Shown piece after piece: positions 253-16,641 of a stretch of 18,407 nt of DNA; the stretch's first letter is position 1, and every line of letters starts with the position of its first letter. The position numbers were made by a program, and so were the translations under genes. Under the pieces are notes generated by a model. That model worked only from the letters and a program-made list of their open reading frames with translations. It had not been told where the DNA came from and did no database searches. The DNA comes from Promethearchaeota archaeon (lineage in GTDB: Archaea > Asgardarchaeota > Thorarchaeia > Thorarchaeales > Thorarchaeaceae), in assembly GCA_048939765.1 (NCBI GenBank), contig JBHLPF010000051.1, forward strand, positions 1 to 18,407, given 5' to 3'.

Positions 253-2025
253 TTGGCACCAGATGAGTCGTTCCTTCCACGGTTTGAGAAGCTTGTCAAC
301 AACGAGAGATACAGAGAGTGTCTTGGTGAGATAGACAAGATTCCAAGGGACAAACTCGAGAAGGAAAACCAACTAAAAATTGGCGTTCTGGAGAGCCTAT
401 GCTATTACGAAATTGGAAACTTCAAGCAGGCATTCGAAACCGCACGAGTCGTTGTGGAGAATGGGAGGAATCTTCGAGCAAGCAAGACAATGCTAATAGA
501 GGGCCTTCTTAGGATGGCCGAAGCAGCATCGCAACTTCTTCAGATTGATGCGATTTTTGAGGCCAGCGAGGAAGCCGAGCAATTGAGACAAGAATTGCCA
601 AAGGATGACAGGTCGCTAAGCAAGTCGATTAGAGCAAGTATCCTCTATGTTGAGTCTATCGGCTGGTTCCTTAGGGATGATGTCCATAGAGGCATTGACT
701 GGGCCCAAGAGAGTCTTTCAATACGACAACAAGTGAAGGACTTGCCGGGCATAGTTTCAAGTCTAATGCGCTTAGGACATCTTCAACTTGAAGATGACAC
801 AAATAAAGGCCTAGAATATCTGGAAAAAGGGCTTGAGTTGAATAAAGACCGACAAAAGAAACACATCATACAGACTCTTCAGCATAAGGGAACGATTCAG
901 GTGATAAATGGCAACTGGAATGAGGCCGAGGAGCTCTTGCTCCAGAGTATTAGTCTTGCCAAAGAACATGACTTGGGAAGATGGGTTCCAACTGGTCTAA
1001 TCCGCCTTGCAGATTTATACATGGCTAAAGGAGAGTATCTACAAGCACAGGAGTATTATCAAACATGCCTCGTTTTAAGCGAGGAAGCAGGTGCTGGGCT
1101 ATTAATCTCAATGAGCACTAATAACCTCGGCGAGATACATAGAGCGGGAGGGAATCTTGGCGAGGCTTTGTTGCGTTATGAAGAATGCATGAGGATTAAC
1201 AAGAAAGCGAACCGAATGAGAGGCTACGTTGTGGCTCTTGCTAACTGCGGAATGATTCATTATGCAAGAGGAGATTTGAAAGAGGCAATACAAGTCCTAG
1301 AGGAATCGTTATCGATATCCAAAGAGAAGACTTGGGGGACTTCATTCAATCCTATAGAATGGGGAACCCTATACACTGTTCTGGTCCTGGTTGAAATGGG
1401 CGAAATCAAGAGGGCACAGAATCATGTAGAGTACTTACAGAGATTGGTCGAGAATAGCTCAAGGGAAGTTCTCAAGCAAATTTACTACTTAGCGGCGTCT
1501 ATAGTAATGAAATCAAGCACTCTGTCCAAAAACAGAGCATTGGCGAAGAAGTATCTTACAGAGGTAGTAAATGGAAAGCTGTATGATTTCGAGGTCAGCT
1601 CCATGGCGCATTTTCTTCTATATGACCTCTTAATTGAGGACCTAAGAATATCTGATGATAGAAGCTTGCTTGATGAGTTGAAAATGCATATGACTAGCTT
1701 CTCCGAAACTATTCTTAGCCAAGGTTCAACAAGTCTGCAGGTGGAGATTCTACTTCTTCAATCCAAGATATCAATACTTGAGTTTGAAATAGACAAAGCA
1801 AATTGTTTCTTGAATCAGGCAAGAAGTTTCGCAGAAGAGAAGGGTCTTGGAAGGCTGTTGGAGAGAATAGAAGATAATCATGAAGTTTTGAATAGAGAGA
1901 TTAGTATCTGGGGAAGACTTGGTGAGAAGAAGCCCACGCTGAGAGAGCAAACAGAGAAGACTCGCATCCATGAACAGATTAGCAATATGATACAGCAGGG
2001 CCTGTGGAGAAAGATGCTCTTCTGA
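253..2025 (+). CDS. Tetratricopeptide repeat (TPR, MalT/TPR_12-like) protein, 590 aa
   Basis: About 40-aa helical repeats with TPR consensus, e.g. LADLYMAKGEYLQAQEYYQTCL, NLGEIHRAGGNLGEALLRYEECM, NCGMIHYARGDLKEAIQVLEESL. TTG start. Confidence 0.88.
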   Translation: MAPDESFLPRFEKLVNNERYRECLGEIDKIPRDKLEKENQLKIGVLESLCYYEIGNFKQAFETARVVVENGRNLRASKTMLIEGLLRMAEAASQLLQIDAIFEASEEAEQLRQELPKDDRSLSKSIRASILYVESIGWFLRDDVHRGIDWAQESLSIRQQVKDLPGIVSSLMRLGHLQLEDDTNKGLEYLEKGLELNKDRQKKHIIQTLQHKGTIQVINGNWNEAEELLLQSISLAKEHDLGRWVPTGLIRLADLYMAKGEYLQAQEYYQTCLVLSEEAGAGLLISMSTNNLGEIHRAGGNLGEALLRYEECMRINKKANRMRGYVVALANCGMIHYARGDLKEAIQVLEESLSISKEKTWGTSFNPIEWGTLYTVLVLVEMGEIKRAQNHVEYLQRLVENSSREVLKQIYYLAASIVMKSSTLSKNRALAKKYLTEVVNGKLYDFEVSSMAHFLLYDLLIEDLRISDDRSLLDELKMHMTSFSETILSQGSTSLQVEILLLQSKISILEFEIDKANCFLNQARSFAEEKGLGRLLERIEDNHEVLNREISIWGRLGEKKPTLREQTEKTRIHEQISNMIQQGLWRKMLF

Positions 2026-2037
2026 TTAGTTGCAAAA

Positions 2038-3510
2038 CTAAGCCTCCTCAAGCATTTGGATCTTGGAGAGAACCTTCTTGCGAAGAGTCTTCATACCTGG
2101 TGAGTCTGGAACAGCCAGAGCATCCTGAAGAGACTCTCTAGCCGAGTCAGCCCTTCCTTGCAAGAGCTGAAACTCTGACCTCATGAGATTATGACATATC
2201 AGGATCCCCGGCAGGCCACGATCTGCAGCAAGTTTCCGGAGTCTTGACATCCAAGGACCAGATGAATCTGCATCAGCAGTCGAGGGGTTCTTCTTGGCTA
2301 TGGCCAGCTCAGCCTCTGTTAGAGCAAGGAGGCAATATACAACATAGAGCAGAATATTCTGCCGCTCGTAGATGTCTAGGGCTTGTACCAAAGTCTGCAG
2401 AGCCGTTTCTGGATCACCAGTTGCTAATTCATAGAGACCCAGAACGTAGTAGTACTGACCCAATACGGCTTCGTGACCACTTCGAAAAGACAGCTCTTTT
2501 GCTATGTCAATGTGGTGAGCCGCTTTGTCTGGTGTTCCAAGATCGCTCAAGGAACGAGCCATCGCCAAATGCGACCAGATTTTTTCCCCTGAAGCGGCAG
2601 ATTGCAGTGCAGATTCAGCCCATGATAAAGCCCCCAAGTGATCATCAACGTTTCGATGAGCATGAGAGAGGTTAAGAGCGGCGAAGTATCCCGAGCGGCC
2701 CTCACGCTCTTCTATGCGGAAACTATTCAGGTGGCATTCCATTGCTAGGTCAAATTCGCCGAGTATCGTTGATACCAGACCCATTTCGTTTAGAATGACG
2801 CTCTCATCATGTCTTGTATCTAGCTCTGTACAGATGAGATGGGCACTCTCAAGATGATCTAATGCCGAGCGCACGTCCGAGTTCTTCGTCAGATTAGCGA
2901 GATCAATTAGGAGCCTCATCACCCTATAGCGGTCATCATATTTCCGTGCAATCTCCAATCCCAGTGCAATCTCCGAGATTGCACTGTTCAGATCATCATC
3001 CATCACATATAGCCAACACTTGACATTGTGAAGCCCAGACTTGAAACATTCCAGGTCGGGATTACTTGCCATGATATTGTCGATGTCTTCGATGAAGCCA
3101 CTGAACTCTGTCAGGAGACCCAAGAAACCTTCGCACACCTGAGGGAACTGAACCAGAATCCAGTCCTCAGGCTTCGCTGCAATTGCATCCTCAATGGACT
3201 TTCGAATTTGAGCAACCTCTCCCTCTGATTCGCCCGAAATTCTCTGGTGAAAGGTCCAAGGTCTGATAATAGCATTCTCTCGATGTGCTTCGGCCAGTCG
3301 TTGCATTACATCCGCTTCAGACAATTGCCACGCGTGGCGAGCGGTCATGTAGACAAGATGAAAAGGAACGGATTCTTTGCTGGCTTTGCTGGCCAGATTG
3401 AGTACGAATTCACGATAGGATTGCGAGCTGTTTGAGATGGCCTCGATCATACTTCTTGTTTCAGATTCGAGAAAGGGATAGTACATAGTGATTGTGCCAA
3501 GCGGCTTCAT
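2038..3510 (-). CDS. TPR-containing alpha-solenoid protein, 490 aa
   Basis: TPR-like repeats NEMGLVSTILGEFDLAMECHLNS and LGLYELATGDPETALQTLVQALDIY. The N-terminal MKPLGTITMYYPFL resembles an expanded Thorarchaeia protein family (from recall, not verified). Confidence 0.82.
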   Translation of the reverse strand: MKPLGTITMYYPFLESETRSMIEAISNSSQSYREFVLNLASKASKESVPFHLVYMTARHAWQLSEADVMQRLAEAHRENAIIRPWTFHQRISGESEGEVAQIRKSIEDAIAAKPEDWILVQFPQVCEGFLGLLTEFSGFIEDIDNIMASNPDLECFKSGLHNVKCWLYVMDDDLNSAISEIALGLEIARKYDDRYRVMRLLIDLANLTKNSDVRSALDHLESAHLICTELDTRHDESVILNEMGLVSTILGEFDLAMECHLNSFRIEEREGRSGYFAALNLSHAHRNVDDHLGALSWAESALQSAASGEKIWSHLAMARSLSDLGTPDKAAHHIDIAKELSFRSGHEAVLGQYYYVLGLYELATGDPETALQTLVQALDIYERQNILLYVVYCLLALTEAELAIAKKNPSTADADSSGPWMSRLRKLAADRGLPGILICHNLMRSEFQLLQGRADSARESLQDALAVPDSPGMKTLRKKVLSKIQMLEEA

Positions 3511-3547: not shown

Positions 3548-3653
3548 GGATATAATCCACGAGATGAGTCTTTCCACTTGCGGAGTCATCTTGAAACATA
3601 ATGACATAACTTATGAAGTGGAAGGAATTTATGAGAAATTGGTGGTATCTTCT

Positions 3654-4076
3654 TTGGAGGTCGAAGGATTCCATTTCCCATTGGAACTATATTACCATCC
3701 AGACCACACATGGGCAAGAATTGAGGGTGACAGAGTTCGCGCAGGAATCACGCCATATGCAGTTCATCTTGCTGGGGAGATTAGGGCAATTACACCCCGG
3801 CCTGTGGGGAAAGAGATTATGATCGGGGGGCCCATTGCTACACTCGAGAGCAACAAGTGGGTAGGGCCCATGAGGAATCCTGTGTCCGGAGTTGTCGTTG
3901 AATCAAACTCTGCCCTCGAAAAGGACTACAGCCCCCTGATCAGCGACCCCTATGGTGACGGTTGGATTTGCGTCCTTAAACCATCTAGTCTTCAAGAAGA
4001 CTTGAAACAGCTCTTTCATGGGGAAGAATCTGTGAGTGAGTGGATCATAATGGAGATTCGAGGAAAGGGTGGTTGA
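3654..4076 (+). CDS. gcvH: Glycine cleavage H-protein family lipoyl carrier (GcvH/LbpA-like), about 140 aa
   Basis: LYYHPDHTWAR, GITPYA, LESNKWVGP (lipoyl-Lys motif), PVSGVVVESN, DPYGDGWI. The start was moved from 3564 to the in-frame TTG 3654, which has a GGTGG SD at 3641-3645 and matches where family homology begins. Confidence 0.9.
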   Translation: MEVEGFHFPLELYYHPDHTWARIEGDRVRAGITPYAVHLAGEIRAITPRPVGKEIMIGGPIATLESNKWVGPMRNPVSGVVVESNSALEKDYSPLISDPYGDGWICVLKPSSLQEDLKQLFHGEESVSEWIIMEIRGKGG

Positions 4077-4084
4077 AACCCATA

Positions 4085-5026
4085 TCATGCTCTTTCCAAA
4101 ATGCCAGTCAGACAGCCTATGCCTCCAGCTGCTTTTGTTACCTCACTTATGTCAACCAGTTGACAGCTCAGTCCTAGGTCCTCATAAAACGCCTGTGTCT
4201 TGGGATTACCATCTGCAGTCAGAATTCGTTTTGGTCCTAATGCAACGAAGTTCATTGATAGGCCAAATGTCATCTCGGACTCGTCGGGCGCGAAATGCGT
4301 AGAGAATCCATGTTCATGTAGCACTTCCAGAGTTTTGCCAGAGACTCTACCAGGTCTACAAATTGCGAGGTCCTGGTCTGCAAAGCGAACGTCGCCCATG
4401 AGATGCATTGAGCCTGGTGGAATTTCGACTCCAACGGTTCCAACCCCCATCTCCATCAGAAGGCTTGACACCTGTGAAGCACCCTCCCTGTTGGTGCGAA
4501 AACCAACTCCGATTATGACTGTATCAGAATTGAGCCATGCTGCATCAGCACCTTCGAATGTGCCATTCCCGCGGATACTTTTCAGGACAGGAATGCCCAG
4601 TCTAGACAATGACTCAGCAATGAATCGCTCCTCACCGGCGCGTACAGATGATGCTGGGCGAGCGAGAATGACGCCCTCAGGTGTTGTGAAGAGTAAGTCT
4701 GCTACGAACATTAGATTAGGAGGCGGCTTGACTGAAGGTTCTACATAGGACACCACTACGCCTGCGTCCCTGAATGCAGCTGCAATGTGACCATGCTGCT
4801 TCGTGATGACTTCTATGAATGGTATCTCAATCATCTGCACCTTGTCTGGATCTGAGATACCAGTGAGTTCGATTCCTGGGCAATGGAGGAGCACTCTCTT
4901 GAGACGAGTCCACTCGGTGTCTACTCCACAAGAACTCCATATGGTTCCAATCTCCTCCTTCATCGATCTCTTCCGCGGGGACCATCCCTTGCCCCCATAT
5001 GGAGAGGCGTTTGACCGGTCTTTCAT
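4085..5026 (-). CDS. Amidinotransferase / arginine deiminase / dimethylarginine dimethylaminohydrolase (pentein) family protein, about 313 aa
   Basis: TEWTRLKRVLLHCPG, PNLMFVAD, RAGE, FEGAD, RTN, MHL and C-terminal GGIGCLT (catalytic Cys). The start was moved to ATG 5026 because the track start at 5122 overlaps dodecin. Confidence 0.87.
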   Translation of the reverse strand: MKDRSNASPYGGKGWSPRKRSMKEEIGTIWSSCGVDTEWTRLKRVLLHCPGIELTGISDPDKVQMIEIPFIEVITKQHGHIAAAFRDAGVVVSYVEPSVKPPPNLMFVADLLFTTPEGVILARPASSVRAGEERFIAESLSRLGIPVLKSIRGNGTFEGADAAWLNSDTVIIGVGFRTNREGASQVSSLLMEMGVGTVGVEIPPGSMHLMGDVRFADQDLAICRPGRVSGKTLEVLHEHGFSTHFAPDESEMTFGLSMNFVALGPKRILTADGNPKTQAFYEDLGLSCQLVDISEVTKAAGGIGCLTGILERA

Positions 5027-5060
5027 CTGCAGCACCGAAAGCGGCTTCCAAGAAAATGTG

Positions 5061-5089
5061 ATGGCAAGGGAGTCAACCGCCCTCGCCAC
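5061..5089 (-). terminator. Stem-loop downstream of dodecin (candidate terminator or processing site)
   Basis: Minus-strand GUGGCGAGGG-(9 nt)-CCCUUGCCAU forms a 10-bp stem with two G-U pairs, followed by CACAUUUUCU. Confidence 0.45.
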
Positions 5090-5108
5090 TCTCAACCTAT
5101 AATCGAGA

Positions 5109-5324
5109 CTACTCCTTCTCATACTTGAAACTCAATGTGACTCGAGCCCGGTAGGCAACAATCTTACCATCCTCAAGTTTGACATCGAGCTTCTTTACCT
5201 CGGCAATTCGAAGATCACGCAGGTTCTTGCTAGCTTTAGCCACTATTGTCGCCACAGCATCCTCCCAGCTCTTAGCACTGGTGCCCACTAGGTCGATTAT
5301 TTTGTATACGCTATTCTCTTCCAT
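5109..5324 (-). CDS. Dodecin family flavin-binding protein, 71 aa
   Basis: SVYKIIDLVGTSAKSWEDA...ASKNLRDLRIAEV...DGKIVAYRARVTLSFK is the dodecin signature. ATG 5324 is preceded by a GGAGTG SD. Confidence 0.93.
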   Translation of the reverse strand: MEENSVYKIIDLVGTSAKSWEDAVATIVAKASKNLRDLRIAEVKKLDVKLEDGKIVAYRARVTLSFKYEKE

Positions 5325-5447
5325 GTCTCTCACTCCGAAAAGAGTATGATATATTCTATGCATTCTTGGACAAAAGGATTGCTGGAGGTGTGAAAACCTG
5401 CGTTTCCATCTGTTTCAGACGGATATCAGCTTTGAACAGTTCTTTGT

Positions 5448-5777: not shown

Positions 5778-6101
5778 TTGAAACTTAATCCATGTGGTCA
5801 TGTCTGTGACGTCTGCCCTAGCTATAAGGGTGAAGACGAACGTCAATGTTCGGGCTGCCTAGCTTCAGAGGGAAATCCATGGTGGGGTAAATGTAGATTG
5901 TACGAGTGCACTATCTCGAAGGGAGTGAGTCATTGTGGACTCTGTAGAGAGTTCCCCTGTCACCTTCAGGTCGGACATTTCAATCCATCCAATCCGAAAG
6001 GTCAACGGAACGCGGTCATGCGAACCGGTGTGCTTGCATATTGGGCAAAGCATGGTGAAGACAAGACAGTCGAGTTAGTCAAGAGAGTTCATGGAATCTG
6101 A
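5778..6101 (+). CDS. DUF3795-like Cys-rich metal-binding protein, 107 aa
   Basis: Pattern PCGHVCDVCPSY...CSGC...CRLYEC...HCGLCREFPC matches DUF3795. TTG start with GAGG upstream. Confidence 0.82.
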   Translation: MKLNPCGHVCDVCPSYKGEDERQCSGCLASEGNPWWGKCRLYECTISKGVSHCGLCREFPCHLQVGHFNPSNPKGQRNAVMRTGVLAYWAKHGEDKTVELVKRVHGI

Positions 6102-6192
6102 ACCTATGCTCTGCTTCTTGTGATGGTTTATCTCTCCGAATTCAAGAACAGATAATAATCGGCAAATACCAGCCTGATGAGGAGATTGTGAT

Positions 6193-7611
6193 ATGAGTAG
6201 CTCGGAGAAGCTCAGTCGGAAAAACCTCTGGGGTTATGCGTTTGGTTCAATTCCCACTGGGCTCTTGGGATTCGTTTTTAGCTTCAAGTACATCGAGTTT
6301 TTCTTTGACGACCTTGCACTCCTTCCTTCATTTTTCATTCTTGGACAGATTATCTACATGACTATCAACTCACTGAACGATCCGCTATCTGGGCAGCTGT
6401 CAGATAGAACCGACAGGGAACGATGGGGGAGCAGGCGGCTTATCTACATCAAATACGGCGGTCCAATCTGGGCACTCACCTTTCTCCTTGTGTGGTTCCC
6501 ATGGAGTCTTACAAATCAGATTATAATATTCCTACACTATGTAGTGACAATCTGTCTCTTTGACACGATGTACACTCTGGTCATTCTCCTCTGGCTTGCC
6601 CTGCTTCCCGAGATGACCATGGACATTGATGAGCGTAATAAGGCTCAGTTCTTCGCAACCGTTTTGGGCACCGTTGTGACCCTACCTGTCTTCATAATAA
6701 TCGCGAACATTACCCCCAATTCTGACCAGTTTAGAGCAATAATGTTCATCCTAGCCGCAATCTCTACCGTCTTCATCTTACTCACTGCTGCTATGTGCGA
6801 GGAGCGTCCTGAGTTCCAGAGTGACAAGGTCTTCACTCTAAAGGAATCAATCATTGCCACATTTCGATCAAGGGCATTTCTTGTCTATGCGGGGTTCTAT
6901 CTCTGTCAGAATATGCTGGGAAGCTTGGGCTTGAGTTACTTCTTCGTATATCTGCTTCTCTTGGAGAGTATAACGCCAGGACTAGACATCATTCTCCTAT
7001 TCTTTGTGATCTACTTCATAGTCGGATATTTGGGAAACATCATAGCAATCAGACTCCAGTCAAGATGGGGAATGAGAAGAATCATGCTTAGGTTCGGGAT
7101 TGTTAGAGTCATAGGTTCGCTAGTCCTTTTCCTCATCATACTTATACCATCTTTCGAATGGACTATATGGCTCGGACTCATTGTGATCACTCTTGCATCT
7201 GGTTACGGCATTTTCCACATTCCAATGCAGTACCTTGCAATAGATGAGGATGAGGTGCTTCACGGCTCACGGAGAGAGGGTATGTTCATCGGAGTAATGG
7301 CCCTGTTGACTCGTCCAGGGACAAGTCTTGGCCCCATAGTAGCCACCTTTATTCTTGCATCTTTTGGATACATCCAAGGGGGTGCGCTCGGAGATCAACC
7401 TGCGTCAGCCCTACTCGGGATCAAGATTCTCTGGTTGCTCGTGCCAGCAGTGGTAGCAGCTATAAGTTTAATCTTCATCTATTTCTATCCACTCCACGCT
7501 GGTGCCCTAGTAGAAATGCAGGAGAAACTAGAGAAGCTGCATAAGGAGAAGAGGGCGGCTTATCTAAGTTCAGAGGGTTCAGATTTAGAGTCTGAGAGAA
7601 TGGATACTTAG
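6193..7611 (+). CDS. MFS transporter of the GPH (glycoside-pentoside-hexuronide:cation symporter, MelB-like) family, 472 aa
   Basis: About 12 hydrophobic segments. Motifs NSLNDPLSGQLSDRT..RWGSRR, LLPEMT...ER, IDEDE....RREGMF and terminal YPL. GAGGAG SD at 6179-6184. Confidence 0.92.
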   Translation: MSSSEKLSRKNLWGYAFGSIPTGLLGFVFSFKYIEFFFDDLALLPSFFILGQIIYMTINSLNDPLSGQLSDRTDRERWGSRRLIYIKYGGPIWALTFLLVWFPWSLTNQIIIFLHYVVTICLFDTMYTLVILLWLALLPEMTMDIDERNKAQFFATVLGTVVTLPVFIIIANITPNSDQFRAIMFILAAISTVFILLTAAMCEERPEFQSDKVFTLKESIIATFRSRAFLVYAGFYLCQNMLGSLGLSYFFVYLLLLESITPGLDIILLFFVIYFIVGYLGNIIAIRLQSRWGMRRIMLRFGIVRVIGSLVLFLIILIPSFEWTIWLGLIVITLASGYGIFHIPMQYLAIDEDEVLHGSRREGMFIGVMALLTRPGTSLGPIVATFILASFGYIQGGALGDQPASALLGIKILWLLVPAVVAAISLIFIYFYPLHAGALVEMQEKLEKLHKEKRAAYLSSEGSDLESERMDT

Positions 7612-7618
7612 CATACGG

Positions 7619-8785
7619 TCAACTGGGGACGTTGATAGGATAGCTGCCATACTTCTCTCGTACATCCATGACTGCTTCCCATCTATCTAGCGTCACAGAA
7701 GGCACTATGCTGTGTCCGCTGCTGAAGAAGTATCCTCCTCCAGGTGCAATTTCTCGAATCAATTTCTTGCTGTACTCCTTAATTTCAGAGATTTCGCCTG
7801 TGGCTAACAAGACAGGGCTGATATTTCCTACGAAAGTAAGCCTATCACCGTATTTCTCTGCAAGACTGAAAATATCGTAATCAGGATTTGCTGTAGTGGG
7901 TTCAATTGGGTGAATTGCATCAATACCACAATTTGTGATATCATCGAATATCATAGCTAAATCCCCATCTGAATGCAATAGAATCATGCAGTTTCGTTTA
8001 TGTGCAGCATCGCAGATTCGCTTGAGCCAAGGAAGAACATATGTTTTGAAGTTCCGCGGGCTCATAAACAATCCATTTTTGAAACCATAGTCATCCCAGA
8101 TTAGAATAAGCTCAGCACCATTCTCTCCAAGAATTTTCACTAATTCGAGTGCTAGATTCCCTCTATCATCAAAGATCTTCTTTGCCTGTTTGGGTTTGGC
8201 TAAGATACGTGAGAATACTTCAATTCCAAAGGGTTCCCAAGCTGTTTCCATCATCCCACCAATAGCAGGAACAGATAGGATTTCATTGTTCATCTGTTCT
8301 TGAACCTGTTTGCCAGCAAAGAAGGCTGCAAGCCGCCTTTTCTCATGAGGGCTTGGTTGTTTCCATTTCTCATAGTCTTCAAAGCTCTTTAAGTAACCTC
8401 CACGATAGCCTAGAATCAGAGTTCCATCCTCATAATAGTCCACATTCATAATTCTTCCAAACTCGTCTATGTAGCCACCTTCGATACCCTTCCGATATGT
8501 GTGTGTAACATAACTTAGCCCGATGTCGATTTTTGCACGTCGTAGGAGCTCATAGCCATCGACCAAACTCTTGGCAAGCCACTTTTGGCTGGAAAATGCC
8601 ATGTTTGCTAGGCGATCCTTGCCCGGTAATCGCTTTATCGATTCATAACCATCCTTGATACCAGCACCTGGTTCGATTCCATAGTATTTCATGATTGTGT
8701 TGTTTGTGAAAGCACTCTCAAACGCCGGAACTCTGTCAGGCTCCTCATGATTTAGTGCCATCAAAACTCGTGTTGGTGCGTCCAA
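7619..8785 (-). CDS. URO-D/MtaA-CmuA-fold corrinoid-dependent methyltransferase (variant H-S-D...H), 388 aa
   Basis: RVLMALNHEEPDRVP, DEFG, WDDYG....FMSP..F, LHSDGD, GNISP, PGGGYFFSSGHSI. Lacks the HemE RQAGR motif. Lies 5 nt downstream of the corrinoid gene. Confidence 0.87.
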   Translation of the reverse strand: MDAPTRVLMALNHEEPDRVPAFESAFTNNTIMKYYGIEPGAGIKDGYESIKRLPGKDRLANMAFSSQKWLAKSLVDGYELLRRAKIDIGLSYVTHTYRKGIEGGYIDEFGRIMNVDYYEDGTLILGYRGGYLKSFEDYEKWKQPSPHEKRRLAAFFAGKQVQEQMNNEILSVPAIGGMMETAWEPFGIEVFSRILAKPKQAKKIFDDRGNLALELVKILGENGAELILIWDDYGFKNGLFMSPRNFKTYVLPWLKRICDAAHKRNCMILLHSDGDLAMIFDDITNCGIDAIHPIEPTTANPDYDIFSLAEKYGDRLTFVGNISPVLLATGEISEIKEYSKKLIREIAPGGGYFFSSGHSIVPSVTLDRWEAVMDVREKYGSYPINVPS

Positions 8786-8790
8786 TAGTA

Positions 8791-9420
8791 TTATCCCTCC
8801 AAAAGAGCTCTAATGCGTCTCACGCCATCAATAGCGTCTGCACCAAAGTCATCAGCCCCCAACTTCTTGGCAAGATCCATACTGAGGGGTGCACCACCAA
8901 CAATCAGCTTCACATCATCGCGAAGACCCGCCTCTCCAAGAGCCTTGTCAACTTCAGATATCTCGTTAATCGTCATCGTAAGCAGACAGCTCAGTGCTAC
9001 AATTCTGGCACCAGACTCCTTCACGGTTTCAACTATTTTCTCCTTAGGACAGTCCATGCCAAGATCAATAACATCGAAACCACCAGAAATCAACATTGTA
9101 ATCAAGATGTTTTTGCCAATGTCATGATTATCGCCTCTCACCGTAGCCGCAATTACCATGTTTTTCTGACCAGCTCCTTCCGACGAGATATGAGGCTTTA
9201 GCACTTCAAAAGCCTCCTTCATGGTTTCCCCAGCCAGAACTAGTTCAGCAAGGAAGTATTCATGCGATTCATAGAGACGACCGACCTCATTCATGCCGTC
9301 CGTAAGGGCTTTCAAGACGTCCTGAGGCTCAGCACCACGATCGAGTTGCGATTTAACAGCTGCTGCAATGTTATCGATATCAAGCTCGATTGTCATTCTT
9401 GTTATGTCATTAAGACTCAT
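8791..9420 (-). CDS. Corrinoid (cobalamin-binding) methyl-carrier protein, MtaC/MtbC/MtoC-like, 209 aa
   Basis: Cap domain (ALTDGMNEVGRLYESHEYFLAELV), B12 motif GDNHDIGKN (DxHxxG), SCLLT and IVGGAP. Confidence 0.95.
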   Translation of the reverse strand: MSLNDITRMTIELDIDNIAAAVKSQLDRGAEPQDVLKALTDGMNEVGRLYESHEYFLAELVLAGETMKEAFEVLKPHISSEGAGQKNMVIAATVRGDNHDIGKNILITMLISGGFDVIDLGMDCPKEKIVETVKESGARIVALSCLLTMTINEISEVDKALGEAGLRDDVKLIVGGAPLSMDLAKKLGADDFGADAIDGVRRIRALLEG

Positions 9421-9561
9421 ATTCTGTCACTACTCACAATTGCACGATATTTCCTCGACTAATCGGATTCAATGGGAAAACTGCGTAATATTCTTTCAGG
9501 CAGAATGTAGTAAGAGATTAATGGCTTGTTGACGGTTTGATTGGACTTAGGAAGGAAAGAT

Positions 9562-12294
9562 ATGTCAGAGAAACCATTTGGTTCGGGCTACTTCGGTGAA
9601 TGGATTAAGGATGAGTTCGGTCTTCCAGCTTATCGCTATACATGTGACCAGATTAGGGACCCAAAGGCCGTATCACCAATGACTGAGGTCTGGCGGCAAA
9701 ACACCGACCATCTTCATCAGGTTGGAAATGATAGACTTGTCGCCGTGGTTTCAAATTATGGCCATGTACAGGTTAGGCAGGATGAAGGCAGTCCCAAGTT
9801 TCTCAACGATTACGACCCATCAAGGTTTCAATTTGGAGGCGGCATAGGATATCTGACCGATGGAGAATCGTTCCTTAGTACATATTATAATGGTCAGGCA
9901 GATGAGTTTGATCGTATCTTTGGCATGGGTTATTTCAGAAAGACAGTGAAGGACAATTCATATGTTTTAGATCAGGTGATCTTTGCACCATTTGGAGATA
10001 TTCCAGTAATAGTTTCTCAAGTCACAATAGAGAATCATAACACGCAAGCCTGCAATCTCAAGTGGATTGAGTACTGGGGATGTCAACCCTATCAATTCTC
10101 ATTCAAATCGTTCATGATGTCCTTAGCACAGAAAAAGCCCGCCTCAGAGATTCGTAGAGATTTCAGTCGTCGATTTGACCACAAGACAGAGATAATAGCA
10201 CACAATAGGGGTCTGTTGGACTCAAAGCGCTTCAAAGGCAATACTATGAGTGATAAGATTGCATGGAAGGCTTTGAATGCGTACCTATCTACAAAGGGAA
10301 AGCATCTTACAGGAGGCCCCGTTAAACCACCAATCAAAGAAACCGTTCTTGAGGATGAGTCACCTCCTAAAACATTCTTGATTTCCTTGGATGGCCCGGC
10401 AGATGAACTTGGCACTGATGTCATGGAGTTCTTTGGAAATGGAGGTGCAGGCGCTCCGGAGGGAATACACAGACCTTTGTCGATGAAACATTCCACTAGG
10501 GATTCCGAAACAGGACTCCTAATTGAGCGGAGATTTCATCTTGAGCCGGGAGAGAAAAAGACGCTCTATTTCGCCTATGGCTATCTACTAGAAGACATGA
10601 AACTTGAAGCCCTGGTTGCTGAAATTGAGAATGACTACTCGAATCTATTGGCCAAGACATGTGAGCAATGGAGAGCCAACAGGATACAACTCCTCACGGA
10701 TGAGGAATGGGTGGATAGGGAGTTGAGCTGGCATAATTACTATCTTAGAAGTAATCTCACCTTTGACAGCTTCTTCAATGAACATATTCTCTCGCAAGGG
10801 CATATGTATCAGTATATCATTGGAATCCAAGCTGCTGCTCGAGACCCTCTTCAGCATGCACTACCCCTTGTGTTTACTCGACCAGAGATTGTCAAGAATG
10901 TCATTAGATATACACTGAAGACAGTGACTCCTGAGGGGAACATTCCATACGGTATTGTGGGACATGGGATGTATATGCCATCTCCCTGGCGTCCAAGTGA
11001 CCAACAGCTTTGGCTCCTGTGGTTGGCTTGCGAGTATGTTCTTGGTCACCGTGATCTCGAATTCTTAGATGAGGATATCACCATGTATCCGATATATGGA
11101 AAGAGAACAAAACAGGCACGAGTGCGAGATGTGCTTGCGCTCTGCTTCAGATATCTGGTCGATATAAATTCAATAGGAAGACACGGGTTGGCCCGGCTCT
11201 CATATGGTGACTGGAATGACATGGTCGTACATGGATATGTTCCGGAAGAACAGCGTGAAGAGGTGACAGATGCAGGAGAGAGCATGCTGAACGCAGCTAT
11301 GTCCACCTATGTAATGAAACTATATGGCCAATTACTCACGTATATGGGGGAAACGAATCTTGCGCAAGAGTCGCGCGATTTTGCAGAAATGCAACGAGAA
11401 GCAGTGAATAAGCAGTGGAATGGAAAGTGGTTCAAACGCGCATGGCTTAGTAATGATATTGGATGGATTGGTGCTGATGTAATGTGGCTTGAACCACAGC
11501 CTTGGGCAATAATAGGCGGAGCCACGAGCAAAGACCAAGCTGATATTCTTTTGAGATCCATTGACGATCTTGCCAGGTCCTTCTCCAAACATGGGGCAGT
11601 GATTCTTTCCAAGCCTATGGAACAGATGGCAGGAGACCCTGGTATTGGTACAAATGCTGGCGTCTGGCCATCAATAAATGGCACACTAATATGGGCACTT
11701 GCATTGATTGATGGAGGCTTGGCTTGGGATGAGTGGAAGAGAAACTCCTTAGCCAAGCATGCAGAGGAATACCCTGATGTGTGGTATGGTATCTGGAGTG
11801 GCCCAGATACGTACAATTCTGAGTTTGCGGAGCGCCCGGGGCAGACAATTGCAGTAGAGGCGAGAGGAGGAGTACGAGATGCCCTTGAGGAGGAAGAGGA
11901 GGCCGCAGGATTCATGGGAGTTGGGTGGACAGATTTCCCTGTGATGAATATGCATCCGCACGCCTGGTCACTTTATGCAATTGCCAAGTTGATGGGGGTC
12001 GAGTTCAATAACAGAGGCGTTGACTTGGCTCCAACGCTACCCAAAGACGTGTACAAGTTCTCAACACCTCTCCTCGAACTAGAGAAGTCAAAGGAGGGAT
12101 ATTCTGGGAGTTACTCTCCAAAATCCTCTGGACAATGGATAATGACACTGAAACTAGAAAAAGACGAGCTAGATAGTGCGACTGCATTGCTTGTCAATGG
12201 CAGACAGGTCGAAATCATCCGAGATGGCGACAGAATAGTATGGGAGGGCAAAAGCACCTCAGAAGAACCATTGAAATGGGTTTTGAGATTCTAG
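9562..12294 (+). CDS. GH94-like (cellobiose-phosphorylase-related) (alpha/alpha)6-barrel glycoside phosphorylase or hydrolase, about 910 aa
   Basis: HQVGNDR..AVVSNYG N-terminus, AARDPLQ (cf. GFRDxxQD), PSDQQLWL, GRHGLARLSYGDWND (catalytic Asp motif, 11206-11220), GES, WNGKWFKRAW, LEPQPWAI. ATG 9562 follows an AGGAAGGA SD. Confidence 0.8.
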   Translation: MSEKPFGSGYFGEWIKDEFGLPAYRYTCDQIRDPKAVSPMTEVWRQNTDHLHQVGNDRLVAVVSNYGHVQVRQDEGSPKFLNDYDPSRFQFGGGIGYLTDGESFLSTYYNGQADEFDRIFGMGYFRKTVKDNSYVLDQVIFAPFGDIPVIVSQVTIENHNTQACNLKWIEYWGCQPYQFSFKSFMMSLAQKKPASEIRRDFSRRFDHKTEIIAHNRGLLDSKRFKGNTMSDKIAWKALNAYLSTKGKHLTGGPVKPPIKETVLEDESPPKTFLISLDGPADELGTDVMEFFGNGGAGAPEGIHRPLSMKHSTRDSETGLLIERRFHLEPGEKKTLYFAYGYLLEDMKLEALVAEIENDYSNLLAKTCEQWRANRIQLLTDEEWVDRELSWHNYYLRSNLTFDSFFNEHILSQGHMYQYIIGIQAAARDPLQHALPLVFTRPEIVKNVIRYTLKTVTPEGNIPYGIVGHGMYMPSPWRPSDQQLWLLWLACEYVLGHRDLEFLDEDITMYPIYGKRTKQARVRDVLALCFRYLVDINSIGRHGLARLSYGDWNDMVVHGYVPEEQREEVTDAGESMLNAAMSTYVMKLYGQLLTYMGETNLAQESRDFAEMQREAVNKQWNGKWFKRAWLSNDIGWIGADVMWLEPQPWAIIGGATSKDQADILLRSIDDLARSFSKHGAVILSKPMEQMAGDPGIGTNAGVWPSINGTLIWALALIDGGLAWDEWKRNSLAKHAEEYPDVWYGIWSGPDTYNSEFAERPGQTIAVEARGGVRDALEEEEEAAGFMGVGWTDFPVMNMHPHAWSLYAIAKLMGVEFNNRGVDLAPTLPKDVYKFSTPLLELEKSKEGYSGSYSPKSSGQWIMTLKLEKDELDSATALLVNGRQVEIIRDGDRIVWEGKSTSEEPLKWVLRF

Positions 12295-12309
12295 ACGAGA
12301 GGAGCATGT

Positions 12310-13353
12310 GTGATGACCCCACGCGACTTGACTCTTGCAGCAATTGAAGGAATGGCGGAAAGAATCCCGTTTAATCCCTTCATTATGCATTTGGCTGCTG
12401 CAATTAATGGAACGGGGTATAGTGATGTTTACTGTCAGAATGCGTGTGTGCTTGCGGATGCTCAAATGAAATGCGCCAGGACATATGGGATAGACCATGT
12501 CAACGTTTCAACTGATGCCTATCGGGAAGCTAGCGCATGGGGTGTGGAGGTCAATTTCTTGGGCCATACTCCTGTCGCTATGAAGCATCTCGATGGAGAG
12601 CGCTTCCACGAAGTTGACGAGCCAAACCTAGACTCCGCCGAACGTATTCAAGACCGGGTTGAAGCAGTTCGGTTATTGAGAGAAGCTAGCGACAAACACT
12701 GTGTTGTCGGATGGATAGAGGCTCCGTTCGCAGAGATATGCTGCTTGTTTGGTCTAGTGAATGTTCTAAAGCTTGCACGTAGACCTGATTGGAATGAATT
12801 GATTCAAAGACTCATTGAACGAGTGCTTCCAGTTCAGCTTGAATTCGCTAAGATGCAGATTGAGGTTGGAGCGGACATCATCGGTGCAGGTGACTCAGCT
12901 GTTTCCCAGATTGGCCCCAAGCGGTATGAAGAGGTCTGCCTCAGACCTACACAGAAACTCTTCAGGGAGATTAGGAAGCGTGCGCCAGTACTCTACCACG
13001 TGTGTGGTGATAGTTCCGTGATAGACAATGAAGGTCGTGACATGTTGGAACTCGTTACTGACTCAGGAACCTCGGTTCTGGACATAGACTACCAAGTGGA
13101 CATGGCCACAGCAAAGGAGAAGATCGGGGACAGAGTATGTCTTCGAGGGAACACTAACACTTCCATTCTTGGAAATAACATGTATACCGCATCTCAAGTC
13201 AAGAAAATGATAGCTGAAACAATCGAGGCAGGAAAACCAGGCGGGAAGTATATGTTCTCAGCTGGCTGCGAATGGCCTTGGGAACCTCTAGACCTTGCCC
13301 TCCGAGATTTGCAGATAGCAGGAAATTTGGTGAAGAAACTCGGAGAATATTGA
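12310..13353 (+). CDS. MtaA/MtbA (MT2)-like methylcobamide:thiol methyltransferase, URO-D fold (H-V-C...C), 347 aa
   Basis: EASAWG, APF, QIEVGADII..GDS, YHVCGD (12997-13005), RGN, SAGCE (Cys 13267). This is the full His-X-Cys-Xn-Cys zinc motif. GAGGAG SD; start at GTG 12310 or ATG 12313. Confidence 0.87.
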   Translation: MMTPRDLTLAAIEGMAERIPFNPFIMHLAAAINGTGYSDVYCQNACVLADAQMKCARTYGIDHVNVSTDAYREASAWGVEVNFLGHTPVAMKHLDGERFHEVDEPNLDSAERIQDRVEAVRLLREASDKHCVVGWIEAPFAEICCLFGLVNVLKLARRPDWNELIQRLIERVLPVQLEFAKMQIEVGADIIGAGDSAVSQIGPKRYEEVCLRPTQKLFREIRKRAPVLYHVCGDSSVIDNEGRDMLELVTDSGTSVLDIDYQVDMATAKEKIGDRVCLRGNTNTSILGNNMYTASQVKKMIAETIEAGKPGGKYMFSAGCEWPWEPLDLALRDLQIAGNLVKKLGEY

Positions 13354-13354
13354 C

Positions 13355-14527
13355 ATGAATTCACGAGAACGTGTCATGGCTGCATTGAATCACAAGAAAC
13401 CAGATATGGTTCCGTTAGACTTTGGCGGAAACCAGTCAAGTATTCATATTGTAGCATATCGACGACTGCTCGAATATCTCAGTATCGAGGATGACAACAT
13501 TCGCTATAGTGATTTTCTGCAGCAGATTGCTGATCCTTGTGAAGAAGTGCTTGAACGATTTCACATCGACATTCGATGGCTTCGTGCACCATCTTCTTTT
13601 CGACCCGCAAGTTTCGTGCCCGAAGTAGAAGGAAAATTCCAGGGCGTATGGGACCAATTTGGGGTGTTCTGGGGAAATGCTGCAGAAAAGGATCTGAAAG
13701 ATACTCTATACTATGATCCAGTTATTCATCCTCTAGCAGACATGAAGACGGTCAATGAGATTAAAGAACATGAATGGCCCGATGGGAGGGACAGGACCCC
13801 TCTCAAGGGATTGAGAGAACGGGCAAAAGAACTTAGAGAGCACACAGACTATGCCATTGGCACTCCCCCTCTGGGGTGCATCTATGAATATACCACATTC
13901 CTTTTTGGATTTGCAAAAGCTATGAGGCATCTGCAGAAGAATCCAGAACTGATTATCGCAGCCATGGAAGAGCTGGAGAGATATTGGACAGATTATGTGA
14001 CCACATTTCTTGAAGAAGTGAGATTTGGAGATGAGCACTATGTCGACATTGTGTGCAACAATGGAGACTTGGCAGAGCAGGCAGGTCCAATCATGAGCCC
14101 CAAGCGCATCTATGAACCACTAATCAAGCCGATAGAAAAACGGTTCGCACTAAAGGTGCACGAACTAGCTGATATAAAGATGAATTACCACAGCTGTGGG
14201 TCAGTCCCTCATTTCATCCCCCACTTCGCAGAAATCGGTTATGACGCAATAAATCCTGTTCAGGTCGGCGCATTTGATATGGAGCCTTGTAGTCTGAAGC
14301 AACGATTCGGCGATATGATAGCTTTCTGGGGCGGTCTTTGCGACACGCAGAAGACCCTTCCATTTGGTTCCACTGACGAGATTCGTCAAGAGGTCGAACG
14401 CAATATGGCATGCTTGAAACCCGGTGGTGGGTATATTGCCTCAAATATACACAATATAACTGCCGAAGTCCCGCCAGAGAATATTGTCGCTATGTTTGAT
14501 GCCGCCAAGCGAAACAGGTTCTATTAA
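13355..14527 (+). CDS. URO-D/MtaA-CmuA-fold corrinoid-dependent methyltransferase (variant H-S-C...H), 390 aa
   Basis: MNSRERVMAALNHKKPDMVPLDFGG, DQFGV, HPL, GDLAEQAGPIMSP, YHSCGS, INPVQ, FWGG, PGGGYIASNIHNI..EVPPEN. Coupled to the upstream gene by TGAcATG. Confidence 0.9.
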   Translation: MNSRERVMAALNHKKPDMVPLDFGGNQSSIHIVAYRRLLEYLSIEDDNIRYSDFLQQIADPCEEVLERFHIDIRWLRAPSSFRPASFVPEVEGKFQGVWDQFGVFWGNAAEKDLKDTLYYDPVIHPLADMKTVNEIKEHEWPDGRDRTPLKGLRERAKELREHTDYAIGTPPLGCIYEYTTFLFGFAKAMRHLQKNPELIIAAMEELERYWTDYVTTFLEEVRFGDEHYVDIVCNNGDLAEQAGPIMSPKRIYEPLIKPIEKRFALKVHELADIKMNYHSCGSVPHFIPHFAEIGYDAINPVQVGAFDMEPCSLKQRFGDMIAFWGGLCDTQKTLPFGSTDEIRQEVERNMACLKPGGGYIASNIHNITAEVPPENIVAMFDAAKRNRFY

Positions 14528-14625
14528 GCCACGTCGGCACTCTCGAGGACAAAGACGTCATCCAAAATAATGAAATGGGTCCTCGCACAGAGGTTAACAT
14601 AGTTTAATCCAAGGAGTGGAGATGA

Positions 14626-16041
14626 TTGTCCGCATTTGAGGACAGCGCAAGGAAACTGTCCGAATTTGGACTAACGCCCTATGAGGCGAAGGTCTATCTG
14701 GCTGCAGTCAAGCTCGGACCAACCTCTGCAAGCAAGGTTTCCAAGATTGCGAAGATTCGTCGTGAGGAAGTCTATCGAACATTGCCAAAGCTCGAAAAAG
14801 TCGGACTTATAGATCGAATTCTTGGTAGACCCGTTAAGATCAGGGCAATGCCAATCGAGGAGGCTCTCAGCTTCCTGATTAGTCGGAAAGAGGAGCAGGC
14901 AAAACAAGAACTCTCAAACCTCTATTCAATGAGAGAGAATATACTTGATAGTCTGGAGGCAGAACCTGAAGAGATGGATTTGGATGAGGAAATGCATCAT
15001 TTCACATTGATATCTGAAAAGGACGCAGTTTCTGCAAGGACTTCGGCATTAATTAGCAACGCTAGAACTTCAATTGACATAGTAGATTCAGGTGCAGACA
15101 TCGTTCGATTCATACTCAACTATGCAGATGCTCTGGAGAACACAAACAAGCGAGTTGTCAAAGTTCGTATACTGACGGTCTGTCCTGACAAGGAGGAAAC
15201 TATCCCTGAAGCTCTTCAGAAGCATGTTCCAAACAATTCCTTCGATTTGAGATATGTGGAAACACTCCCCAGTCGATATGTTATGGTCGACCGAAAGCAG
15301 GTACTAATCACAACGACACCTGATGGAACATTGTCCGATTTGAAATGCCTGTGGACAGATGACCCTAGCCTTGTAGGACTCATCGAGAGAGACTTCGAGG
15401 AACAATATGCCAAGTCTACGTCCTGGAAAGATTTCAGACTCTCCCCATCTGAGAAGATGACTAGGATTGTGAAACATCTGAGACCAAGAGATCATGTGAT
15501 TCTAATGTACGACTCACTTGAGGCAAAGCGAAACACGCTCTTCAACTACCTTAGATATGGACTGGAAAACGGAGAGGCTGTGAAGTACGTCTGTTCAGAA
15601 GAGTCTCCTAAAGAAATTCGAATGGCTATGCAGAAGTTCGGCATTCCTGTGAGCGAGTACGAGAAGACAGGTGCTCTGGACATAATGAATTACACTGACA
15701 TCTATATCAAAGATGGAAAGTTCAGTGTTCTAGATATTATGGATGCATGGGATAGCTACTACTCAAACGCACTTGCTGAGGGATTCAAGGGTCTGAGAGT
15801 CACTGGAGAGATGTCATGTTTCATGGAACACTCGCTGGTGGACGACTTGATTGAGTATGAGAAAGCGCTCCATACCATTCTTGATATCCCCTTGACGGCA
15901 ATTTGTGCCTATAACTCCGAGACGCTGGCTAGAATAGAAAATCCTTTGGACGTATATTCCGAGCTTGTCAAGGCACATGGTAAAGTCCTTTTTGCCGGCA
16001 AGGACAGCACTGTTGGAAAGGTAGAGATGCGTAAGGCTTGA
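14626..16041 (+). CDS. TrmB-family transcriptional regulator with a C-terminal MEDS sensory domain, 471 aa
   Basis: N-terminal TrmB HTH (LSEFGLTPYEAKVY...IRREEVYRTLPKLEKVGLI...GRP), a coiled coil, and a TrmB effector-like middle (ARTSIDI...VRIL...VMVDRKQVLI...LWTDD). From about 15481, MEDS motifs DHVILMY, GLENGE, GFKGLRVTGEM, LIEYE, ICAYN, AH. TTG start with AGGAGTGG SD. Confidence 0.88.
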   Translation: MSAFEDSARKLSEFGLTPYEAKVYLAAVKLGPTSASKVSKIAKIRREEVYRTLPKLEKVGLIDRILGRPVKIRAMPIEEALSFLISRKEEQAKQELSNLYSMRENILDSLEAEPEEMDLDEEMHHFTLISEKDAVSARTSALISNARTSIDIVDSGADIVRFILNYADALENTNKRVVKVRILTVCPDKEETIPEALQKHVPNNSFDLRYVETLPSRYVMVDRKQVLITTTPDGTLSDLKCLWTDDPSLVGLIERDFEEQYAKSTSWKDFRLSPSEKMTRIVKHLRPRDHVILMYDSLEAKRNTLFNYLRYGLENGEAVKYVCSEESPKEIRMAMQKFGIPVSEYEKTGALDIMNYTDIYIKDGKFSVLDIMDAWDSYYSNALAEGFKGLRVTGEMSCFMEHSLVDDLIEYEKALHTILDIPLTAICAYNSETLARIENPLDVYSELVKAHGKVLFAGKDSTVGKVEMRKA

Positions 16042-16044: not shown

Positions 16045-16290
16045 TCAGGCGGGCAGATAGATCCACTGGCGCATGTCTTGAAGGCAAGGTATACGTTTGA
16101 TCAACTTCTTCCTGAGTAGTTTCCGCAGCGCATATCTAACGGTTCTCGCAGCAAAAGGAACTTCCTGAAGAAGCTGCTTTGGTGTCACGCCTTTCTTTCC
16201 TCTTGTTCTCATCAGGTCGAGCACGATGGTTTGACTCTTTGTCAGACTAATGTTATGCAGCTCCTCTCTGAGCTGTTCATCACTCATCAC
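16045..16290 (-). CDS. Small winged-helix (MarR-like) DNA-binding protein, 80-81 aa
   Basis: LTKSQTIVL...TPKQL......RTVRYALRKL...LI......DMRQWIY is the wHTH pattern with the wing DxR motif. Confidence 0.82.
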   Translation of the reverse strand: MMSDEQLREELHNISLTKSQTIVLDLMRTRGKKGVTPKQLLQEVPFAARTVRYALRKLLRKKLIKRIPCLQDMRQWIYLPA

Positions 16291-16344
16291 ACGAATTCAC
16301 CGTTTTTGTAGTTGATTCGCTGTCTAAATTAGGATTTAAGCACC

Positions 16345-16368
16345 TGTGACTGTGAGGATACAGTCACA
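16345..16368. promoter_or_regulatory. Perfect 9-bp inverted repeat, candidate operator
   Basis: TGTGACTGT-gaggat-ACAGTCACA, directly upstream of a TATA-like CTTAAAT (minus strand, 16340-16334) of the wHTH gene. Confidence 0.55.
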
Positions 16369-16641
16369 TTCACGGATATGAATAAACAATTGTTAACTGG
16401 TCGGATAATAGTCGTGCGATTGGCTTGATCACAGCGATGCAGAAATTACCTAATGGTGGAGCGATGAAAGCTGTCGATAGTCGGAAATAGGGATGAAGCA
16501 CCAATGCCATTATACTACAATATTCAACTGCGGAATATCATCCAAAGCCGTTCCTCATAGTGTAACTTTTATCAGGGCTTGGGAAAGGGGCAACCTAATC
16601 CCTCAGTGATCGTTGCGAACAGTGAAGGAATTGCGAAGCCT

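Follow-up and report, generated by a model that had tools for sequence, protein, structure and literature searches.

Three-component corrinoid systems for O-demethylation have been described in both archaea and bacteria: MtoABCD of Methermicoccus shengliensis and Archaeoglobus fulgidus, MtvABC of Moorella, and the Odm and Vdm systems of Acetobacterium. They combine a corrinoid protein bearing a DxHxxG motif with a presumed substrate:corrinoid methyltransferase (MT1) of the uroporphyrinogen decarboxylase (URO-D) superfamily, a transporter of the MFS type and a regulator in the gene cluster, and a RACo activator and an MtrH-type methyl-corrinoid:acceptor methyltransferase (MT2) in the genome (PMC8630106). 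All of these elements recur in a thorarchaeal genome (GenBank assembly GCA_048939765.1), in and around a locus on contig JBHLPF010000051.1. The 18,407-nucleotide stretch analysed here (the window) encodes a corrinoid protein, three URO-D-fold proteins (MT_A, MT_B and MT_C), a sugar symporter of the GPH family and a distant relative of the phosphorylases of family GH94, which we call GH94-like. The locus nevertheless differs from the Mto, Mtv and Odm systems in several respects. Its activator and MtrH-type MT2 are encoded elsewhere in the genome, it holds an additional methyltransferase-like protein, MT_B, with an MtaA-type residue pattern, and the first gene of its operon is that of the 910-residue GH94-like protein, which is co-inherited with the methyltransferase genes. 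Moreover, the genes that surround its relatives are sugar genes, not aromatic ones, and the likeness of MT_A and MT_C to the known enzymes is seen in fold and residue triads. We give roughly an even chance to the reading that this system removes methyl groups, by way of a cobamide, from methylated carbohydrates or glycosides taken up by the cell, with the GH94-superfamily protein acting as a cytoplasmic glycoside-cleaving enzyme; within it, methyl transfer as such, the nature of the substrate, whether cleavage precedes demethylation, and which acceptor takes the methyl group are our inference.

Methyl ethers on sugars, such as 4-O-methyl-glucuronate in xylans and 6-O-methyl-galactose in red-algal galactans, block ordinary glycan breakdown, and further 2-O- and 3-O-methyl sugars occur in pectins, mosses and microbes. 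The only published route of sugar demethylation that our literature search found is one that requires O2: a cytochrome P450, encoded in a glycan-utilisation locus of marine Bacteroidetes, oxidatively demethylates 6-O-methyl-D-galactose from porphyran (PMC6292453, PMC9400963). The problem is the same in both cases, a methyl ether that stands in the way of sugar catabolism within a glycan-utilisation locus, but the P450 needs O2 and releases formaldehyde, and its families are unrelated to those considered here, whereas the system proposed here would be O2-free and would conserve the methyl group. Searches of the literature for corrinoids together with methylated sugars, and for GH94 together with corrinoid or URO-D proteins, found no description of such a system, in agreement with the original prediction for this DNA, which knew of no characterised system of its kind. 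Corrinoid three-component systems and GH94 enzymes are each known already; what appears to be new is their conserved coupling and fusion, and the link to a sugar-type substrate.

The evidence for that coupling comes from comparison of gene neighbourhoods, for which the window's proteins were mapped onto the loci of related genomes and onto 80 loci chosen as one genome per species. URO-D genes, corrinoid genes or both adjoin the GH94-like gene in 13 Asgard loci that span several classes, with records from Thor-, Hermod-, Hel- and Promethearchaeota and from Atabeyarchaeia as well as further archaea. In the usual form the corrinoid gene is divergent from a run of GH94-like, MT_B and MT_C, and it has this orientation in 11 Asgard genome loci (L022-L029, L101 and two Atabeyarchaeia genomes). 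The run is tight: in the window 15 nt separate the GH94-like stop codon from MT_B and 1 nt separates MT_B from MT_C, and the GH94-like and MT_B frames share 4 nt in both closed genomes of Atabeyarchaeia. The conserved core is these four genes. Since the GPH symporter, the DUF3795 protein, the TrmB-MEDS regulator and MT_A vary between lineages, the block is best described as this core plus accessories; the original prediction had treated some ten kilobases as one unit, of which the core is conserved and the other four genes are not part of it. Conservation of the neighbourhood, on which that prediction had staked itself beforehand, is borne out, the module being both conserved and co-inherited in Asgard archaea.

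Among the accessories, the symporter, DUF3795 and TrmB-MEDS are restricted to the window's closest relatives. DUF3795 is syntenic solely there, at the equivalent position in L022-L024 with 72–79% identity, and TrmB-MEDS, with 78–95% identity, holds the equivalent position in L022, L024, L027, L091 and L164. The symporter lies beside MT_A in L023, L024, L028, L101 and L107 and, among the loci compared, is absent from the sister genome L022 and from other Asgard classes. MT_A, on the other hand, is frequent in Asgard loci and is present also in some of those from Hel- and Promethearchaeota. In one single-contig genome (G004; L021:8214-9770), the match to GH94-like is limited to residues 393-910 and lies in a 555-residue open frame directly upstream of MT_B and MT_C; this gene is either N-terminally truncated or has an N-terminal half that has decayed.

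Co-inheritance extends the argument beyond adjacency. Among 61 related genomes, which are not independent samples and to which we attach no statistic, 13 carry an orthologue of GH94-like (at least 52% identity), and exactly the same 13 carry one of MT_B (at least 59%) and one of MT_C (at least 66%), and MT_C is present in addition as two fragments where contigs are cut. Even the window's own genus shows a patchy distribution, 8 of its 16 genomes having the three genes, and in one genome (G044) GH94-like lies on one contig and MT_C-MT_B-MT_A on another. Because presence matches exactly across a patchy distribution, and does so even where the loci are separate, the three genes are gained, kept and lost together, beyond what mere adjacency would give.

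The GH94-like protein is, on the evidence of profiles and a predicted structure, a remote relative within the GH94 superfamily, built of an N-terminal supersandwich, an (alpha/alpha)6 barrel and a C-terminal beta domain. Both PF06165 and PF17167 match above their cut-offs, with a catalytic-domain score of 81 bits as against 482 bits for the canonical GH94 protein of the host genome, and an NCBIfam scan matched no model. When a profile built from 41 GH94-like sequences was compared with the PDB, it retrieved cellobionic acid phosphorylase (4zle, 1e-27) and cellobiose phosphorylases, all in the range of 1e-27 to 1e-25. The AlphaFold model (pLDDT 88, pTM 0.92) likewise had GH94 phosphorylases for all of its top Foldseek matches, aligned over the whole length (E 1e-35, TM about 0.65).

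Residue roles were taken from the cellobiose phosphorylase (CBP) of C. gilvus, in which Asp490 is the general acid and phosphate is bound by His666 together with Arg351, Thr731 and Gly732 (PMC5501786). The catalytic DWND of GH94-like aligns with the ADWND of CBP, and across the 41 sequences D550, W551 and D553 are invariant and N552 nearly so. The equivalents of Trp488, which is invariant, and of Asn660 are kept, and an ARDPLQH motif probably holds the Arg367-Asp368 pair. These features, like the multi-domain fold, are shared with the GH94 phosphorylases (4ZLE; 2CQS and 3QDE for cellobiose; 1V7V for chitobiose), from which GH94-like differs in having only about 15–17% identity to them, in being genetically coupled or fused to URO-D proteins, and in the acceptor and phosphate side of its active site. 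There the column of His666 is occupied by a near-invariant serine, Ser704, in place of the phosphate-binding histidine, Glu659 is replaced by threonine, and Tyr653 falls in a deletion. For Arg351, Thr731 and Gly732 the alignments gave no placement, either as kept or as lost. As the phosphate-binding histidine is replaced, GH94-like may not be a true phosphorylase; we read it as an active glycoside-cleaving enzyme whose acceptor and phosphate side has been altered.

The corrinoid protein and the three URO-D-fold proteins are the candidate components of a corrinoid methyl-transfer system. The corrinoid protein combines B12-binding_2 and B12-binding domains with the sequence DNHDIG, an instance of DxHxxG, and scores best against models of MtbC and MtaC, reaching 158 bits on TIGR02370 (cut-off 215). 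This affinity is shared with MtaABC and MtbA (4ay7), as are the URO-D fold and, apparently, the H-x-C...C pattern of MT_B; the differences from those systems are that scores here lie far below equivalog cut-offs, that searches of the 88.5%-complete host genome turned up no MtaB, ComA or McrA, and that the host is no methanogen. In alignments of each protein's own orthologues, MT_B has an invariant H230-x-C232...C320, which resembles the zinc/thiolate pattern of the MtaA type, while MT_C conserves H279-x-C281...H366 and MT_A conserves H271-x-D273...H358. The best PDB match of MT_A is MtaA itself (4ay7, E 5e-7), and the predicted structure of MT_C (pLDDT 67) has a URO-D/MtaA/MetE fold, for which Foldseek matches do not separate MT1 from MT2. 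MT_B is a candidate MT2, MT_C a candidate MT1, and MT_A a candidate second substrate:corrinoid methyltransferase.

A reciprocal test, in which metagenome contigs were scanned with the MT_C alignment, brought out other settings of MT_C, with DUF2961 (GH172-like), two MFS proteins, a GPH-type symporter, a sulfatase, an amidohydrolase and an FGGY kinase. A GPH-like symporter accompanies four of the seven MT_C orthologues that share at least 55% identity and have at least 3 kb on both sides. For more distant MT_C-like genes, 18 loci were well flanked, and 5 of them have a corrinoid gene no further than 8 kb away. No fused, longer version of MT_C came up in a separate search aimed at such forms, which is weak evidence. 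Since these alternative contexts are themselves carbohydrate-related, MT_C-type proteins would be enzymes of sugar loci whose glycosidase partner varies. That they depend on a cobamide carrier is likely.

Beyond the Asgard archaea, GH94-like proteins form a large family, with 1572 matches, many of them at about 50–55% identity in Terriglobia, Anaerolineae, Bacteroidia and Opitutaceae, and the link to URO-D proteins recurs in Chloroflexota, in Bacteroidota and in one Acidobacteriaceae genome. The Chloroflexota examples include fusions: a single frame joins GH94-like, URO-D and a C-terminal SCP2 (sterol-carrier-like) domain in a 1451-residue protein of Chloroflexia (L036:9971-14326) and in a 1445-residue protein from a metagenome (P0089). 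The gene order in an Anaerolineales locus (L032) is GH31, URO-D, an unassigned gene, GH94-like, a membrane protein, URO-D-SCP2, URO-D, corrinoid protein, GH3 and GH3; URO-D-SCP2 is here a separate gene of 550 codons, two genes downstream of GH94-like. In Bacteroidia (L044) the order is MT_C-like, PfkB sugar kinase, RhaT and GH94-like, and in Acidobacteriaceae (L081) it is corrinoid protein, MtaB, RACo activator, MT_C-like, GH94-like, a tannase/feruloyl esterase and a SASA carbohydrate esterase. The MT_C relatives that lie beside GH94-like or within two genes of it (L041, L044 and L081) are 28–30% identical to MT_C. The Acidobacteriaceae locus (L081:3952-16268; CAWEHF010000011.1, a metagenome-assembled genome) thus carries a full methanol-type corrinoid set, with MtaB scoring 518 bits; such a set is unusual in this family, whose members are known mainly as aerobic heterotrophs. 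In a FastTree phylogeny of GH94-like proteins, the Asgard clade, linked to URO-D in 11 of 11 members, has as its sister a bacterial clade in which the linked proteins are the basal ones. As a label on this tree the link changes six times, four of the changes being forced by supported branches, although the outgroup and L071/L072 are long branches and the root is unsure. Recurrence in other genomes, co-occurrence and fused forms make the arrangement more than chance, and a functional connection of glycoside cleavage with methyl transfer by corrinoid proteins is well supported by the conserved module, the co-occurrence and the fusions.

The partners that the locus itself does not encode are largely to be found elsewhere in the host genome. 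A RACo/RamA-type activator (COG3894) of 593 residues, with Fer2, RACo_middle and RACo_C_ter domains, is encoded on contig 21, where its neighbours are an MtrH homologue and another corrinoid protein; two further MtrH homologues and CdhC of the carbon monoxide dehydrogenase/acetyl-CoA synthase (CODH/ACS) complex are also encoded. In the archaeal methoxydotrophic system MtoA is of the MtrH type and MtoB of the MtvB type (PMC8630106), so that a chain resembling Mto could be assembled from this genome, and the suggestion in the original prediction that the methyl group is handed on to C1 metabolism is plausible given the three MtrH homologues, the activator and CdhC. The presence of MtaB in the Acidobacteriaceae locus prompted the idea of free methanol as an intermediate, released from a methyl glycoside and then taken up by MtaB, but MtaB was not found in the host genome at its 88.5% completeness, so we regard free methanol as an unlikely intermediate. 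Elsewhere in the same genome, contig 90 (L187:13612-15757) carries an MtmB-family gene (monomethylamine methyltransferase-like) that is free of internal stops and overlaps a corrinoid gene; the pair adjoins genes of an Opp-type ABC transporter, and the canonical GH94 protein, of 788 residues and with this type of transporter of its own, is encoded 7–8 kb from the MtmB-family gene.

It is possible to sketch how such a system might work. The GPH symporter would import a methylated di- or oligosaccharide or a glycoside, and GH94-like would cleave its beta-glycosidic bond, with Asp553 of the DWND motif as general acid and either water or phosphate as the nucleophile. MT_C, and in this genus perhaps also MT_A, would use a bound metal to move the O-methyl group to Co(I) of the corrinoid protein, from which MT_B, through its HxC...C residues, could pass it to an acceptor of the thiol type; alternatively, MtrH-type enzymes could take it into the CODH/ACS pathway. 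Re-reduction of Co(II) would fall to the RACo/RamA-type activator encoded on another contig, and TrmB-MEDS would control both of the divergent operons.

Several observations weigh against this scheme. To our knowledge, attack by Co(I) on a sugar methyl ether, in which the leaving group is poor, has never been demonstrated. MT_A, MT_B and MT_C fall far below every NCBIfam methyltransferase cut-off, at 52.2, 70.9 and 37.1 bits on NF040654 (MtaA, cut-off 400 bits) and at most 79.5 bits on TIGR01463 (cut-off 235 bits), and MT_B is by sequence equally near to true uroporphyrinogen decarboxylases (HemE) and to MtaA. No pterin-type (MtrH) MT2 and no activator is encoded inside the locus, and coenzyme M lacks support as the acceptor, in that neither ComA, for its synthesis, nor McrA was found in the 88.5%-complete genome. 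Among the seven well-flanked MT_C orthologues, GH94-like is a neighbour in two and a corrinoid gene in one. About 59 of 64 bacterial loci with a GH94-like orthologue of about 50% identity have no URO-D gene nearby and hold sugar genes instead (TonB-dependent outer-membrane barrels, Sugar_tr, ROK, SIS, RhaT and SDR), and the GH94-like enzyme is therefore not dependent on methyl transfer. The interpretation first offered for this DNA is supported in part, namely for the conserved pairing of a glycoside enzyme with a corrinoid module. Finally, a MetE-like gene (Meth_synt_2, about 368 residues) lies within 7 kb of GH94-like in nine acidobacterial loci, all of Terriglobia (L040, L042, L043, L048, L049, L052, L056, L095 and L100), which also hold Sugar_tr, ROK, SIS, PTE, FAD-oxidoreductase and RhaT genes. 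Its product might play the part of the URO-D partners without a cobamide, or the proximity might be coincidental among close relatives; the genomes are closely related and the gene is often several genes away, and we treat the association as not established.

Three rival explanations were also weighed. The methyl group might be carried by the aromatic aglycone of an imported methoxylated-phenolic glycoside, for instance coniferin, syringin, a glycoside of vanillin or ferulate, or a lignin-carbohydrate fragment, from which GH94-like would strip the sugar while MT_C and MT_A would O-demethylate the phenolic in the manner of MtoB or MtvB. This we consider unlikely, but it stays alive because of the SCP2 domain, which suggests a lipid or other hydrophobic ligand, in the Chloroflexota fusions and because of the feruloyl esterase gene directly after GH94-like in the Acidobacteriaceae locus; in addition, no O-methyl substrates other than aryl methyl ethers have been proven for MT1 enzymes of the URO-D type (PMC8630106), and the habitat is mangrove sediment with plenty of plant detritus. 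A sugar-borne methyl group is nonetheless favoured, because the neighbours of GH94-like and of MT_C relatives are overwhelmingly sugar genes (GH31, GH3, PfkB, FGGY, ROK, SIS, RhaT, sulfatase and DUF2961), and aromatic-ring catabolic genes were not seen among them.

Rather improbable, in our estimate, is that no O-methyl group is removed at all, the system running in the methylating direction towards a methylated glycoside or a methyl-thiol, with MT_B akin to a methionine synthase, or MT_C carrying out a sugar reaction that is independent of cobamide. The thiol-activating HxC...C pattern of MT_B, its proximity to HemE, the MetE-like genes of acidobacterial loci and the shortage of corrinoid genes within 8 kb of most MT_C orthologues all fit such an explanation, and cobalamin methyltransferases are described as reversible in vitro (PMC10946705). 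Against it, the corrinoid gene almost always accompanies the others in Asgard archaea (11 of 13 complete loci) and is found in L032 and L081 as well, the latter with a RACo activator besides, and every context is a catabolic sugar locus with importers. The conserved Cys/His triads, too, are missing from real HemE. Least probable, and in our view improbable indeed, is that an ordinary beta-glucoside-degrading enzyme simply happens to lie beside an unrelated methylotrophy operon. Most bacterial GH94-like orthologues do stand without methyltransferases, the genes are at separate loci in G044, and Asgard genomes have other corrinoid systems, here an MtmB-like protein with a corrinoid protein and the MtrH, RACo and corrinoid proteins of contig 21. 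Yet mere proximity would hardly produce an exact match of presence and absence in 61 genomes despite patchiness within one genus, intergenic gaps of 1–15 nt that give way to an overlap in Atabeyarchaeia, two independent gene fusions, and a link that recurs, with different URO-D subfamilies, in four bacterial phyla.

The layout of the locus is given in the table below. Genes were called from six-frame open reading frames combined with Pfam and NCBIfam scans, which place every gene of the original prediction where it had been put; the short gaps and the divergent intergenic region that it described follow from the coordinates.

Features of the proposed methyl-transfer locus, in positions of the 18,407-nucleotide window
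Feature	Position	Strand	Basis
DUF3795 small protein	5778-6101	+	Pfam PF12675, 42.8 bits
GPH/MFS_2 sugar:cation symporter	6193-7611	+	PF13347, 162 bits, full length
MT_A, URO-D/MtaA-fold protein	7619-8785	-	PF01208, 102.6 bits
Corrinoid (cobamide) carrier protein, MtbC/MtaC/MtoC type	8791-9420	-	PF02607 and PF02310
Divergent intergenic region	9421-9561		two conserved AT-rich boxes
GH94-like protein, 910 aa	9562-12294	+	PF17167, 80.8 bits; PF06165, 28.8 bits
MT_B, URO-D-fold protein	12310-13353	+	PF01208, 149 bits
MT_C, divergent URO-D-fold protein	13355-14527	+	PF01208, 61 bits, C-terminal half
TrmB-MEDS regulator	14626-16041	+	PF01978, residues 11-78; PF14417 (MEDS), residues 289-434

The ATG at 9562 as start of GH94-like agrees with the N-terminus of its homologues, MxxKxFGSGYFGEW, and the MT_A gene follows the corrinoid gene on the same strand after 5 nt. 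Alignment of seven orthologous intergenic regions brought out the two AT-rich boxes, at about 9486-9498 (GTAATATTCTTTC) and about 9507-9521 (AGTAAGAGATTAATG), which are probably back-to-back archaeal promoters. The symporter is the probable importer, with an MFS_2 match over its full length and 102 bits on TIGR00792 (gph), below the cut-off of 231, and TrmB-MEDS, in which an N-terminal TrmB winged helix-turn-helix (wHTH) domain (64 bits on PF01978) and a C-terminal MEDS domain (111 bits on PF14417) were confirmed, is a probable local regulator. DNA near-identical to the window occurs in sediment metagenomes, from which the window may itself derive, and in mangrove metagenomes of another study at 0.33–0.41 of sampled words.

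The module is flanked by TPR proteins, GcvH-like, ADI-fold and dodecin proteins, a small wHTH protein and a DsbD_TM protein, none of which is an evident member of the system. Among them, the large TPR proteins at 253-3510, whose TPR regions resemble that of MalT, may be regulators; TPR_MalT and wHTH-TPR proteins also adjoin MT_C-MT_B-MT_A in the distant G044 (L104:2969-4810 and 6772-8775). A GcvH-like lipoyl carrier of 170 residues (3564-4076, +) and the ADI-fold and dodecin genes (4085-5363, -) are syntenic with the module in its closest relatives, and gcvH has been found beside MtrH/MttB/MtbC genes in a study of Atabeyarchaeia and Freyarchaeia (PMC11291895). Beyond TrmB-MEDS lies a gene for an 81-residue winged-helix protein (16045-16290, -) with weak Rpc34/MarR-like matches, whose conservation is unusually high for its setting: identity is 97–99% in four of the five genomes in which it was seen and 88% in the fifth, as compared with 78–95% for its neighbours. 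Between this gene and DsbD_TM, two relatives (L022:16283-20747 and L024:16728-21197) carry three genes (about 251, 473 and 500 residues) over some 4.4 kb, a stretch that the window, at 16290-16579, does not have.

Taken at its broadest, demethylation of sugars by this compact module of four core genes might be the first case of anaerobic, cobamide-dependent sugar O-demethylation, carried out by MT_C-type enzymes on a sugar that a new GH94-superfamily enzyme, no longer using phosphate, sets free or unblocks, feeding methyl groups into the synthesis of acetyl-CoA and present in Asgard archaea and in anaerobic Chloroflexota and Bacteroidota; we put this forward tentatively, as possible and rather less than probable. 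If it were true, an O2-free, B12-dependent route would close a gap in anaerobic carbon cycling, corrinoid methyltransferases would gain a new class of substrate, and the GH94 superfamily a functionally distinct family. Methylated plant and algal glycans would supply sugar and C1 units alike in anoxic sediments, a source of methyl groups that bypasses methanol and that would compete with methylotrophic methanogens, and Asgard archaea could be assigned a specific part in the breakdown of plant and algal material in sediments of mangroves, marshes and the sea.

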